DNA of 13,445 nucleotides, taken from a virus (taxonomy: Duplodnaviria; Heunggongvirae; Uroviricota; Caudoviricetes). Below the pieces are notes generated by a model. The model was not told where the DNA came from and made no database searches. It saw only the letters and a list, made by a program, of their open reading frames with translations. Position 1 is the stretch's first letter. The number at the start of each line of letters is the position of its first letter. Location of the stretch: IMG/VR virus record IMGVR_UViG_2654587686_000016; one strand, 5' to 3'. A program made the position numbers and the translations under genes. This document shows, piece after piece, positions 1,307 through 9,086 of the stretch.

Positions 1307-1508
1307 AGATTATCCAGTGACGATAATCGAGGCTGAGGGCTTTCTTAATCTCGTATCCGCGTCTGCGGTAGTTATGAATTAGCCATTCGGCCTGTTCTTC
1401 AGTACATGGTGGGTGTTGGTACCAGTCGGTTTTAAATGCGTGTGAACGCCGCCCATGCCGGATGGCAAGGTCGGTATCAGAATTGTGAAATTTGGTTTTG
1501 TGCACCAT
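1236..1508 (-). CDS. Small phage protein (90 aa), function unknown
   Basis: ORF in the same orientation as the hok/DUF968 string; stop TAA at 1238-1236 lies immediately before the candidate GTG start of the DUF968 gene. Basic, Trp/Tyr-rich sequence. Confidence 0.5.
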   Translation of the reverse strand: MVHKTKFHNSDTDLAIRHGRRSHAFKTDWYQHPPCTEEQAEWLIHNYRRRGYEIKKALSLDYRHWIIYVRLPYSERPPRPSRTFQQRIWR

Positions 1509-1577
1509 CTGTTTTCTCTGCTGGCGCAGCAGGTGTCAGGTGTTCAGGCTGACGTGCGAATTGTAAACCAGAATGCC

Positions 1578-1607
1578 AGGAAAAAACAAAACCCGCCGAA
1601 GCGGGTT
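1578..1607 (-). terminator. Rho-independent terminator at the 3' end of the hok transcript
   Basis: On the - strand: stem ACCCGC / GCGGGT with loop (1591-1606), followed by UUUUGUUUUUUCC. A second hairpin, GGCGAGGGA...TCCCTCGCC at about 1640-1665, matches the fold-back 3' element expected of hok mRNAs. Confidence 0.7.
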
Positions 1608-1675
1608 AAGTGCGGGTGCGTTGAGGATGCCTGACTCATCAGAGGTGGCGAGGGATTTCTCCCTCGCCTGGTCTC

Positions 1676-1831
1676 TTACTCCTCAGGTTCGTAAGCTGTG
1701 AAGACAGCGACCTCCGTCTGGCCGGTTCGGATTCGTACCTCGCAGAGGTCTTTCCTCGTTACCAGTGCCGTCACTATGACGGTTAAACAGATGACGATCA
1801 GGGCGATTAACATCGCCTTTTGCTGCTTCAT
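1676..1831 (-). CDS. hok: Hok-family type I toxin (51 aa, HokD/RelF-like)
   Basis: Translation MKQQKAMLIALIVICLTVIVTALVTRKDLCEVRIRTGQTEVAVFTAYEPEE matches the Hok/RelF sequence as I remember it: a single TM helix and conserved Cys. SD AAGGAG lies 8 nt upstream of the ATG. The 70-aa ORF in the track is an in-frame over-extension. Confidence 0.85.
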   Translation of the reverse strand: MKQQKAMLIALIVICLTVIVTALVTRKDLCEVRIRTGQTEVAVFTAYEPEE

Positions 1832-2010
1832 AGCCTGCTTCTCCTTGCCTTTCGGCACGTAAGAGGCTAACCTACATGTGCAAAGCATGAAATTGGCCTC
1901 AGATTAATGTTAAGCGTCTTGCCGGACGCGTAATGTTAACTGGGGCTTTTCTCTATCTGCCTTTTGGTGTTCATGCCTGAGGCAGATAGCCTCAAGCACC
2001 CGCAGCAATT
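1832..2010 (-). promoter_or_regulatory. hok mRNA 5' leader with hok-like structural elements; expected location of the overlapping mok frame and the antisense sok RNA (+ strand)
   Basis: The - strand leader contains CTTGAGGCTATCTGCCTCAGG (a tac-like stem) and TAGCCTCTTAC...CAAGGAGAAG just upstream of the hok ATG, resembling canonical hok leaders from memory. The sok promoter and exact RNA ends are not mapped. Confidence 0.45.
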
Positions 2011-2388
2011 CTAACTATCCAATAGATCAATGCCAACCTCTTTTCCTGCAACATCTCTCATCAGAAGTGACCCAAATTCATCCAATCAGCACAAAAGAAA
2101 CATTTAAAGCGTGAATGCTACCGAACGTTCATTTCAATTACATCGTTTTGATTTTTAACAGTTTTCACCTCAACAAATCAAATGGCATTAGCATTCATCA
2201 TGGAAGAAAGACTGATAAAAATGATCATTTTCAATGACTTATGATCACATCGGGTATTGCCAAGTCATTCCTTTTACGCCAGGATACCCACAAGTGAGTA
2301 GTCGAGGAGAGTTTGCCAATTTTTGCGATATAAATTTCAATGTCCGAAGAACCATTAATTGTTAATTGATTCTGTATAAGGTATTAAC

Positions 2389-3486
2389 ATGACAATTTCA
2401 TATATTCCTATTCTGAAAGCGAAACGTTCTGAGTTATCAGCTTTATCGCAGCTATCCATTGAAAAGAAATCAAAAATTTTGCCATTACTCGAAATTGAAC
2501 CAGTGCCAATTGACCCTGATTCAGGTATTGCCTTAAAGAGTTATAACGAGACTCTTATAGAGTTCGGAAAGAAAGTCTCAAAATCTTGCTCAGATATGCA
2601 AGGTGTTTATATTGATGGATTATTAATTGAAGAGCATTTTATTTCTCCTGAAGATCATTACCCTATAATAAATGCGGTTAATCAAGTTAGAGATATGGAG
2701 ATAAGAGTTATTCCTGTCAGTTCACCAACTCGCCCATCTAACTATAAAAGAGCGATTGATGAATTAATGCAGAATGAAATATGCTTGAGATTAACCACGT
2801 TAGATCTGGTTAACCCACAATTAATAACGCATTACATTAATCATCTGGGAATTCCTTTATCAAATATTGATATAATTATTGACTTAAGAGATGAGTTAAC
2901 CGAGGATAAAATTAATTCCGGCGAACTATATACTTTGGCAATGGGATTGATAAACAATCTGGCGCACCTCAATGAATACAGAAAAGTGATTCTTTCTGGG
3001 GGTTCATTTCCTACAGATCTCAGTGATATTTCTGTTGGTCTATATTCTCAACCTCGAATCGAGTGGATTTTATGGCAGAGTTTAATGAATAGAAAAGAAC
3101 TTGCCAGAAATGTGATTTATAGTGATTATGGAGTACAGCACCCCGACTTTAATAGGCTTTCGACGCGATTCCCTAGCGTATCTGCCAGCGTCAGATACTC
3201 TGGAGATAATGACTTTTGGGTATTTCGAGGAAGAGTAGCTAATCGCTTTGGTTATGAACAATATGGTAAACATAGTGAGGATATTCTTGCTCATCGAGAA
3301 TATTCAGGGCCTACATTCTGTGCGGGAGATAGAGACATAGAATATTATGCAAACGAGTATCAAGCCTACAAAGCCAATCCCTCTGGTAACTATAAATTTG
3401 GTAGCCCAGAGGTATGGCGTAGGATTGGGCAAAACCATCACATAACTAAGGTTGTTGAGCAACTCGCCACTCTTTACGGGCTTTAA
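2389..3486 (+). CDS. Uncharacterised 365-aa protein, gene A of an AT-rich accessory cassette
   Basis: Long uninterrupted ORF at about 33-35% GC (counted on two 60-nt samples), with a weak SD (AAGG) 9 nt upstream. Hydrophilic, with no TM segment and no catalytic motif I can name. Preceded by a ~500-bp AT-rich ORF-free region. Confidence 0.8.
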   Translation: MTISYIPILKAKRSELSALSQLSIEKKSKILPLLEIEPVPIDPDSGIALKSYNETLIEFGKKVSKSCSDMQGVYIDGLLIEEHFISPEDHYPIINAVNQVRDMEIRVIPVSSPTRPSNYKRAIDELMQNEICLRLTTLDLVNPQLITHYINHLGIPLSNIDIIIDLRDELTEDKINSGELYTLAMGLINNLAHLNEYRKVILSGGSFPTDLSDISVGLYSQPRIEWILWQSLMNRKELARNVIYSDYGVQHPDFNRLSTRFPSVSASVRYSGDNDFWVFRGRVANRFGYEQYGKHSEDILAHREYSGPTFCAGDRDIEYYANEYQAYKANPSGNYKFGSPEVWRRIGQNHHITKVVEQLATLYGL

Positions 3487-4024
3487 GTTTAACTCGAACA
3501 GCTTCACGAAGCTCGCCAACATCCATACTATTGGCGAGTTTTGACCATAAGACGCGTTTAGGTTTATTTTTCAAATTCTGTAGCTCCCCTACATCACTTA
3601 ATAGGGAAAGCAATTCATCTTTCCAAAGAAGCATTGTTAAGGAAAGTTTGTCCACTTGTGGATTCAACTTGCTAGTTCGAATTGTTTTTAAATGGATACC
3701 TTGCCGTGCACCTTGCGTAACTTGCTTTATCCCCCACCATGATGGAACTATGCTTAAAGCATCATAAAGATGGCAATCAGAGACAACCAAAGTTACTTTA
3801 TCCATCACTGATGAGTAATGTTGCACCTGCGCTGGTAATCTGAGCAAGTTATCACTCTTGCTCTTCAACTCATAACCATGTATAAGCCCATTGATCACTG
3901 CTATATCAGCTCTGCTAGCCCCTAGATTCATCGTAAACTCATCAATGATTAGGGTGTCAGGATCTTTATGATGATCTCTCAGAATCTTGGCATGCACAGC
4001 CTTTCTTACATCAATGTCTCTCAT
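3446..4024 (-). CDS. Uncharacterised 192-aa protein with a PD-(D/E)xK-like nuclease signature, gene B of the AT-rich cassette
   Basis: ORF convergent with gene A, overlapping it by 41 nt at the 3' ends. Motif E29 ... RA-D40-IAVI ... GY-E52-L-K54 fits the D-x(n)-(D/E)xK pattern of a hydrophobic beta-strand followed by ExK. GC roughly 37-40% on two 60-nt samples. Confidence 0.75.
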   Translation of the reverse strand: MRDIDVRKAVHAKILRDHHKDPDTLIIDEFTMNLGASRADIAVINGLIHGYELKSKSDNLLRLPAQVQHYSSVMDKVTLVVSDCHLYDALSIVPSWWGIKQVTQGARQGIHLKTIRTSKLNPQVDKLSLTMLLWKDELLSLLSDVGELQNLKNKPKRVLWSKLANSMDVGELREAVRVKLKARKEWRVAQQP

Positions 4025-6332: not shown

Positions 6333-6758
6333 TTAGTGCATCACCACAGCATTCCCTGCCGGGCCGCCGCGATTCATCTGGTCATACAAAACAACCGCTG
6401 ACGCAACAAAATCATCGACATCCTTCACCAGCCGATCCCTCCGTTCGACGATCTCACGGTAATATTCAGAACTGTGGCTGCGCATACGGGCCACCAGCAA
6501 AGGCGGCATCGCCTTTTCGATCGCCGGTAACAGAGCCTGCATTTTTTCAACAGCATCAGGGGTGTCTTTATCCAGCCAACGGAAAATTTTCTGGGTATTA
6601 CGGGCCAGGGCTTCCGGATGGCTGTCGTCGTACAGTTCAGGGAACGTCATCCCCAGTTCGAAATAAGTCCGGGCTATTTCAGCTGCAGGAACTTTCTCAC
6701 CATCAGGGTATGCCCAGGCATTCATCGCCATGCGGATGTGCTCATGTTTGATTTTCAT
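6333..6758 (-). CDS. ydaT: YdaT-like protein (141 aa)
   Basis: Second gene of the operon divergent from the repressor, overlapping the upstream cro-like gene by 17 nt. Length matches K-12 Rac YdaT (about 140 aa, from memory), with SD GAGG upstream. Confidence 0.7.
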   Translation of the reverse strand: MKIKHEHIRMAMNAWAYPDGEKVPAAEIARTYFELGMTFPELYDDSHPEALARNTQKIFRWLDKDTPDAVEKMQALLPAIEKAMPPLLVARMRSHSSEYYREIVERRDRLVKDVDDFVASAVVLYDQMNRGGPAGNAVVMH

Positions 6759-7065
6759 GAATCATTTGCCTCTTGATGCTTCGGGTATGATCGTTTTCGT
6801 CATTTGGTTGCTTCATCGACATATTCTGCGAATAACATGACGAGCGTCGTAAGTATGTCCAATCAACATCAGGACGAAGTTCTTCACACAGGACACCACC
6901 TTTTGTTGCTCGTTCAATCGCAGGACATCTCTCAGCAGGTAACTGACGTACACCTTTGATCCATTGATTTACGCTTGGAGGAGATACACCTAAAAGCCTA
7001 GCCATTGCTGATTGCCCACCGACAACAGCACAAGCTCGTTTGAATGAATAGTTATCTTTTTTCAT
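6742..7065 (-). CDS. ydaS: Cro/CI-type HTH DNA-binding protein, YdaS-like (first gene of the rightward-equivalent early operon)
   Basis: MKKDNYSFKRACAVVGGQSAMARLLGVSPPSVNQWIKGVRQLPAERCPAIERA closely resembles Rac YdaS as I remember it. The ATG at 7065 has GGAG 9 nt upstream; the upstream in-frame ATG in the ORF track lies within the RBS. Divergent from the repressor gene. Confidence 0.75.
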   Translation of the reverse strand: MKKDNYSFKRACAVVGGQSAMARLLGVSPPSVNQWIKGVRQLPAERCPAIERATKGGVLCEELRPDVDWTYLRRSSCYSQNMSMKQPNDENDHTRSIKRQMIHENQT

Positions 7066-7089
7066 CGAATGAACTCCAAAAAACACGCA

Positions 7090-8518: not shown

Positions 8519-9086
8519 TAGCTAACCAACGAAGCTAAGGTTGGTAATTAAGGAGTTCTCCACGGGTGAGGTGGAGTGCTTGCGCCGGACACGGGTGAGC
8601 ATCCGGCACTGACAGTTTACTGAAAGGATATTTCCCTGAAAAGTCAGACCATAACGCGAAAGCGCACGGCGAGGTAGCTGGTTCATAGATAGCCTGTCGT
8701 TAAATTTTTGTCGACCGTGCGCTTCCGGTTGTGGCAATCCGCGAAATGGCGCGGCGGTAAGTATGGCGGGGTTATTCCTTCCCCCGTTGCGGACACCGGG
8801 TTGTCAGGTTGACCATACGCTTAAGTGACAACCCCGCTGCAACGCCCTCTGTTATCAATTTTCTGGTGACGTTTGGCGGTATCAGTTTTACTCCGTGACT
8901 GCTCTGCCGCCCTTTTTAAAGTGAATTTTGTGATGTGGTGAATGCGGCTGAGCGCACGCGGAACAGTTAAAACCAAAAACAGTGTTATGGGTGGATTCTC
9001 TGTATCCGGCGTTAATTGTTAACTGGTTAACGTCACCTGGAGGCACCAGGCACCGCATCACAAAATTCATTGTTGAGGACGCGATA

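Follow-up and report, generated by a model that had tools for sequence, protein, structure and literature searches.

A predicted complete hok/mok/sok module in the early-right region of a Rac/Qin-like Escherichia coli prophage

Introduction

A hok toxin gene whose immediate upstream neighbour lies on the opposite strand, next to AT-rich DNA, raises the question of whether it still forms a self-contained toxin-antitoxin unit or whether its control has been changed by what lies beside it. Such a gene is present in a 13,445-nucleotide stretch of DNA recorded as a virus of the Caudoviricetes (IMG/VR record IMGVR_UViG_2654587686_000016), which we refer to in full as the window and to which all coordinates below apply. 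An initial annotation, made from the letters alone, had proposed that this hok gene retains an autonomous leader and a 3' fold-back in spite of the orientation of its neighbour, that an intact antisense sok RNA or a silent promoter should be expected, and that the AT-rich insertion could have altered this control. Here, we follow up these proposals by family-model matching, RNA folding, promoter scanning and comparison with other hok loci.

Results

A hok leader and toxin gene in a lambdoid prophage

The hok/mok/sok unit spans window positions 1580-2036 on the minus strand. The Rfam family RF01794, whose gathering score is 59, matched 2001..1826 (-) with 119.8 bits (E = 2.2e-27) over model positions 1-157/157, and the Pfam family HOK_GEF (PF01848, with a cut-off of 22 bits) matched the 70-aa open reading frame at 1888..1676 (-) with 81.7 bits (E = 2.7e-23). 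These matches lie far above chance, and chance resemblance is ruled out for the hok features described here. The Rfam match carries the name 'sok' but lies on the hok sense strand, and it could therefore be mistaken for the antitoxin gene. We rejected its reading as a minus-strand Sok gene, because the consensus of RF01794 starts at the 5' end of the hok mRNA and ends at the hok AUG, so that the match is to the hok leader in the sense orientation; the structure drawn for this family is the open conformation of the leader. The hok toxin gene itself (51 aa, Pfam HOK_GEF) occupies 1676..1831 (-), and the mok frame of 70 codons, which is in frame with hok, extends over 1676..1888 (-) in the list of open reading frames, with its AUG at 1888.

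The window corresponds to the early half of a Rac/Qin-like lambdoid E. coli prophage, and its best whole-window matches are chromosomes of STEC and porcine E. coli (~98% identity). On the plus strand it carries an integrase, a RecE-type exonuclease and DicF. The minus strand holds an early-right operon of YdaS-/YdaT-like genes, a replication gene, DUF977, small ORFs and a sce7726-family gene, after which hok, a 90-aa ORF and DUF968 follow on the same strand, heading towards Q. The opposite-strand neighbour of hok ('gene A' of the initial annotation) belongs to the Beta_protein family (2389-3486, plus strand; Pfam 7e-52, PADLOC PD-Lambda-2_C 1e-40). It converges with the sce7726-family gene (3446-4024, minus strand; PADLOC 'cll' 2e-28), the two overlapping by 41 nt, and together they form a beta/cII-like cargo pair beside hok. 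The AT-rich region of this pair, 2389-4024, has a GC content of 32-43% and showed no gop-like ORF. PD-Lambda-2_C, the PADLOC family matched by the beta gene, is related to the P4 beta antitoxin.

Other features of the window were recorded alongside. A full-length match to RF00039 (76.7 bits) marks the DicF sRNA at 8861-8912 (+), so that the window includes a dicBF-type division-inhibition operon. The Rac immunity region is represented at 6333-7086 (-) by genes of the YdaS-like (Cro/HTH) and YdaT-like types (Pfam 4.6e-30 and 2.8e-10); in a related genome, the opposite side of this region carries a RelB/RelE-ParE pair in addition. In related genomes, RefSeq lists a 59-aa 'hypothetical protein' (WP_001112732) at 1455-1634 (+), covering both the hok terminator and the beginning of the following gene; this is probably a spurious call.

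Folding of the predicted hok mRNA

The full-length hok (mok-hok) mRNA, taken as the span from promoter to terminator, would measure ~418 nt (1584..2001, minus strand; mRNA positions are numbered from +1 = 2001). Its fold reached -173.2 kcal/mol, compared to -126.5 +/- 5.7 for shuffled sequences (z = -8.1). In the minimum-energy fold of this RNA, its 5' and 3' ends are paired with each other. Specifically, the tac element GGGUGCUUGAGG at the mRNA 5' end (nt 1-12; 1990..2001, minus strand) pairs with the fold-back inhibition element fbi, CCUCAACGCACCC (nt 376-388; 1614..1626, minus strand), through 12 bp and one bulge, while ucb pairs with the region of SDmok, the mok Shine-Dalgarno sequence GAGG, which is located 9 nt before the mok AUG (1897..1900, minus strand). 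This ucb, the mok anti-Shine-Dalgarno box AAAGCCCC, lies at 1942..1949 (-) and pairs in the folds with SDmok (closed form) or with tac (open form). In plasmid R1, ucb (the mok anti-SD) is situated at ~nt 70-74, which corresponds here to AAAGCCCC (PMC9841398). The placement of ucb in a TAGCCTC box, as given in the initial annotation, had to be corrected accordingly to 1949-1942. Likewise, TAGCCUCUUAC and CAAGGAG proved not to be ucb and dcb, the GCCUC box being dcb.

The open form was recovered from shorter stretches of the leader. Both the fold of nt 1-60 and the Rfam consensus structure contain a stem between tac and ucb, the pairing for which folding of the leader had been suggested as a check. 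In the open form as given by the Rfam consensus structure, dcb (GCCUC, 1863..1867, minus strand) pairs with GAGGC at SDmok. The hok Shine-Dalgarno sequence, SDhok (AAGGAG), follows at 1841..1846 (-). The leader elements TAGCCTCTTAC...CAAGGAGAAG, which the initial annotation had quoted as hok-like, are indeed present at 1869-1838 (-) and include both dcb and the hok Shine-Dalgarno sequence. The other element that it had quoted, CTTGAGGCTATCTGCCTCAGG (~1996-1976, minus strand), is the 5' hairpin, which folds with -19.6 kcal/mol when nt 1-35 are considered alone. This corresponds to GUGCUUGAGGC-UAUCU-GCCUCAGGCAU (1973..1999, minus strand), the metastable hairpin expected at the 5' end of the transcript while it is nascent, and the role that we assign to it below comes from the R1 literature, to the extent that it is summarised in PMC9841398.

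The 3' end had been described as holding two hairpins and a U-tract, and this was found to be the case. The first is the 3'-UTR hairpin GGCGAGGGA-GAAA-UCCCUCGCC (1647..1668, minus strand), which forms in the full-length fold; fbi (1626-1614) comes next, followed by an intrinsic terminator, AACCCGC-UUCG-GCGGGUU plus a U run, identified by a terminator scan at 1580..1607 (-), with its hairpin at 1607-1590 and its U run reaching to ~1580. When the 3'-trimmed mRNA was folded, its 5' end paired in the minimum-energy structure with UCAGGCAUC, a stretch immediately 5' of fbi, and formed the 5' hairpin in the centroid; a clean tac-ucb structure was absent from the minimum-energy fold of this trimmed RNA.

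Conservation of the two conformations across hok loci

A pattern scan of species-representative genomes yielded 120 loci, and the alignment comprised 47 distinct hok mRNAs that encode a Hok with the R[KR][DN]LC motif (HokD/HokW type). The genera represented among these 47 loci include Escherichia, Kluyvera, Pantoea, Erwinia and Photorhabdus. The closed fold of the window was 82.2% paired over the alignment, as opposed to 39-45% when the pairing partners were slid by 1-3 columns, and neither the observed pairing nor the observed covariation score was reached by any of 500 shuffles (0/500). Within the closed fold, the two tac-fbi helices were 91% and 85% paired among the 47 loci and contained compensatory changes, namely U-A replaced by C-G (10 loci) and G-C by A-U (7 loci). 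The tac-ucb stem of the open form was paired in all of the 44-45 loci that have letters there; it is almost invariant, and covariation was not seen in it. The sole tac position of helix 1 with a compensated U-A to C-G change is the position that is left unpaired (bulged) in the tac-ucb stem, as would be expected if the sequence had to satisfy two structures at once. The helix between SDmok and dcb was 87% paired over the 47 loci, with the dcb box being partly fixed by the search pattern, and the helix of the 3'-UTR hairpin was 97.9% paired, with changes on both sides in 4 of its 9 pairs.

Several E. coli copies of the prophage type (loci L003-L006, L035, L095 and L119) have the same terminator. 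The hairpin of this terminator was not found in 933W, Rac-SA53 or most loci of other genera and is therefore no feature of the family.

Two further observations concern the loci of the scan. The Photorhabdus loci L010, L013, L023 and L067 form tandem arrays of 2-4 hok loci that are ~0.5-1 kb apart, and some of their Hok ORFs are truncated. Moreover, UACG, the TadA editing motif, occurs at 1690-1693 (-) at the Tyr47 codon of hok; TAC is kept at this codon in most of the 47 loci, with TGC or TGT (Cys) in a minority. In K-12, A-to-I editing of the hokD mRNA, which changes Tyr to Cys, is reported at 6% (PMC12214031).

A putative promoter of its own at the edge of the cargo

As a rule, a hok locus is served by its own promoter, the exception being the truncated K-12 hokD behind relBE. 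Given that this arrangement is normal for hok, an opposite-strand neighbour poses no paradox, contrary to what had been implied. In the window, a consensus scan of 1450-2450 returned a sole sigma-70-like site, at 2036-2008 (-), with 10/12 consensus matches; it consists of the -35 hexamer TTGGCA (2036-2031), a 17-nt spacer and the -10 hexamer TAGAAT (2013-2008). A -10 hexamer that ends 6 nt before GGG(T/C)GC recurs in nearly all of the hok loci compared, in several genera, and the Rfam model match begins at 2001. We infer that the hok mRNA starts at about G2001.

The presence of a consensus-like promoter exactly where the conserved 5' end begins bears on the possibility that hok is expressed mainly through read-through early-right transcripts upon induction, with its own promoter being secondary. 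This reading is compatible with control by the module's own elements. All other genes of the early-right operon lie on the hok strand, so that read-through from further upstream is possible, and in each of the other contexts retrieved, from six E. coli loci and from phage 933W, the gene directly upstream points the same way as hok. Such transcripts would also meet the Sok promoter head-on, and in the related hokW-sokW locus RecA-dependent induction was followed by a decrease of SokW and an increase of HokW (PMC8621323). In the window, however, the plus-strand beta gene intervenes, and a hypothetical 5'-extended RNA would still hold tac and fbi. We consider it rather unlikely that read-through is the main route, and favor transcription from the promoter at 2036-2008.

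This promoter coincides with the junction to the cargo. Indeed, megablast similarity to most copies ends at 2013, which is the upstream edge of the hok -10, and the -35 of the window, TTGGCA, matches the consensus at 5/6 positions, whereas hokW of 933W and the common type have TTTGCG (3/6); promoters of this common type fail the same consensus scan. The junction might thus have led to stronger hok transcription and a shifted balance between toxin and antitoxin, which would set this copy apart from hokW. Hexamer matches are, however, no measure of promoter strength, and hok control is mostly post-transcriptional. Furthermore, a TTG/GC-type hexamer at 17 nt is kept in several upstream classes, so it looks like a natural promoter allele and not like damage. 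The arrangement is also maintained: the DNA between hok and beta (2014-2388) is present in 93 E. coli genomes, and the window-type upstream region always adjoined hok in the 5 places inspected, which include phage Rac-SA53 and the window itself; in the cases inspected, the beta/cII-like pair was likewise next to hok. An altered balance of this kind is therefore improbable in our view, and destruction of the hok promoter by the AT-rich cargo was rejected, as the -35 is still there. Of the earlier suggestion that the AT-rich neighbour could have changed the control of hok, what stands is a weak version, in that similarity stops at 2013 and the -35 allele differs; the -35 as such is kept and Sok is unaffected. 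On the sequences compared, the cargo junction appears to change the -35 allele only.

The predicted Sok antisense RNA

The position of Sok was derived from the sokW annotation of phage 933W (AF125520, 58664..58734), which places a 71-nt RNA at 1880..1950 (+), in which a long hairpin is flanked by a single-stranded 5' tail and by a U tail. The predicted Sok is complementary to nt 52-122 of the hok mRNA, which contain ucb, SDmok and the mok start, and it folds with -28.6 to -30.2 kcal/mol (z = -4.9). Its putative promoter, at 1845..1873 (+), has the -35 hexamer TTGCCT (1845-1850), a spacer of 17 nt and the -10 hexamer TAACCT (1868-1873). In the consensus scan this pair of hexamers remained under the threshold, and the assignment therefore rests on identity with sokW: over the 41 nt that contain the promoter, the sequence does not differ from the tested sokW of 933W, in which a mutation of the -10 abolished antitoxin activity (PMC8621323). 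The layout also matches that of an R1-type locus (TTGCGC-17-TATCCT). The Sok promoter sits within the conserved core of the locus, untouched by the cargo junction. The expectation of an antisense RNA was thus upheld as far as an intact predicted promoter and body are concerned, by identity with sokW, but its position had to be moved from around 1890-1990 to 1880-1950 (+).

Compared to SokW, the Sok of the window has 7 differences, all of which lie within Sok nt 2-16, whereas nt 17-71 are identical. Among 115 distinct hokD-type loci, we observed that the most variable stretch of the hok unit is window 1880-1900 (the Sok 5' tail and mok start). Mean entropy there was 1.08 bits at 1890-1881, compared to 0.0-0.6 in the neighbouring leader and coding blocks, and the Sok 5' tail occurred in ~8 major alleles.

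Relatives of the locus

Matches to the locus were found in 4739 of 5426 complete E. coli genomes, with 2 such places in the median genome and 11 at most. An enrichment of hok in prophages has been documented, and the HokD coding sequence is toxic (bioRxiv 10.1101/2025.08.07.668861). The Hok of the window is 100% identical to K-12 HokD and 42% identical to R1 Hok.

The mokW/hokW/sokW locus of 933W/Sp5 (VT2-Sakai) is 93.9% identical at the DNA level, in an alignment that covers 85% of the query (window 1604-2013). It has the same 70-aa Mok (93% identical to MokW), a 51-aa Hok, a prophage setting and an identical Sok promoter. The two copies differ in 4 C-terminal residues of Hok, in the -35 hexamer of hok (TTTGCG in 933W), in the neighbours of hok and in the canonical terminator, which follows fbi in the window and is lacking in 933W. 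This relative is a tested, working toxin-antitoxin pair that speeds lysis on induction, with growth arrest occurring ~40 min earlier and phage release being doubled (PMC8621323).

Two other prophage copies illustrate how the surroundings of the module vary. In Rac-SA53 (KU052037), mok/hok is found in the same order of hok, divergent beta gene and cII-like/sce7726 gene and shares the upstream region of hok (96.2% identity over window 1613-2060), while the downstream flank differs, with rem and irsA-type genes, and IS1 lies beyond the cargo. The hokD (relF) locus of the K-12 Qin prophage encodes an identical Hok, has the same downstream DNA and terminator, resides in a lambdoid prophage and adjoins DUF968 and rem-type genes. 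Its similarity is cut at window 1845, with relBE directly upstream, and it is without hok promoter, tac, ucb, mok start and Sok. This K-12-type arrangement, with relBE upstream and the leader lost, was not found in the window, which keeps the leader to 2001 and the promoter; hence, the RefSeq name 'hokD' describes the protein and not the arrangement.

The hok/sok (parB) locus of plasmid R1, which we compared through the R1-type locus in L124, shares the order of elements, namely tac, metastable hairpin, ucb, SDmok, dcb, SDhok, 3' hairpin, fbi and terminator hairpin, as well as the logic of tac-fbi and tac-ucb pairing. It differs in that its Hok is only 42% identical, its Sok hairpin is shorter than that of the window, and it resides on a plasmid and not in a prophage.

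Discussion

Taken together, the locus very probably represents a type I toxin-antitoxin module of the hok/mok/sok kind that is complete and self-contained, located in the early-right part (nin side) of a lambdoid E. coli prophage of the Rac/Qin-like type. Both reading frames and every regulatory element are intact and conserved. The autonomous hok unit with its own leader and 3' fold-back, as initially proposed, is borne out by the Rfam and Pfam matches, the promoter, the terminator and the significance of the fold (z = -8.1).

How such a unit might work can be outlined from the R1 paradigm (PMC9841398), for which each element can be pointed to in the window and, for the closed form, covariation can be added. 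The hok promoter (2036-2008) would yield an mRNA of ~418 nt, the 5' end of which would be trapped in the local hairpin as long as the RNA is nascent. In the finished RNA, tac would pair with fbi and ucb would cover the mok ribosome-binding site. These two pairings would render the full-length RNA stable, untranslatable and not bound by Sok. Slow trimming of the 3' end would then strip the terminator and fbi, upon which tac would pair with ucb and SDmok would be exposed in a hairpin with dcb. This open form might meet one of two fates. Binding of the short-lived 71-nt Sok would lead to its destruction by RNase III; otherwise it would be translated, with translation of mok being coupled to that of hok. 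Hok, a 51-aa membrane toxin, would collapse the membrane potential. It would be made when the supply of Sok fails, as upon loss of the element, shut-off of transcription or prophage induction, the last of which was shown for hokW-sokW.

By analogy with hokW-sokW, the module likely helps lysis on induction and/or stabilises the prophage. A contrasting view would be that the locus, even though it looks intact, is physiologically silent, being carried along with the prophage without ever releasing Hok and without any benefit. Precedents exist, as intact chromosomal hokA, hokB and hokC were reported to show neither post-segregational killing nor a rifampicin response, according to the passage of bioRxiv 10.1101/2025.08.07.668861 that cites this work, and deletion of hokW-sokW had no growth effect in the absence of induction (PMC8621323). 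Yet the regulatory elements and both frames are not only intact but conserved with compensatory changes, unlike in decayed copies such as the K-12 hokD, and the 93.9%-identical hokW-sokW does make Hok on induction and alters the timing of lysis and the phage yield. We therefore consider a silent locus improbable and retain a role in lysis and/or prophage stabilisation as the likely one.

The module is a textbook one that is widespread, already characterised and found in its usual genomic niche, and the window holds an ordinary copy and not a new one. Its discovery value is small, since most E. coli genomes have the module and the closest relative, hokW-sokW, has already been tested. It is of use for annotation, as RefSeq gives the gene name hokD without annotating mok or Sok. 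In addition, the window shows what the truncated K-12 hokD looked like in its complete, ancestral state.

The variable Sok tail and the promoter alleles at the cargo junction are leads only. They suggest, as an unlikely scenario, that the hok/sok copies of prophages might be individually tuned and mutually insulated via the Sok tail, and that a cargo swap might reset the strength of the hok promoter and tie the module to its cargo; the position of the junction just upstream of the hok -10 would allow for such a reset. If this were true, the variable target-recognition tail of Sok (its first ~16 nt) would prevent cross-talk among co-resident copies, and exchange of the cargo, which is here the beta/cII-like defence pair, would link an addiction module to the cargo that it accompanies.
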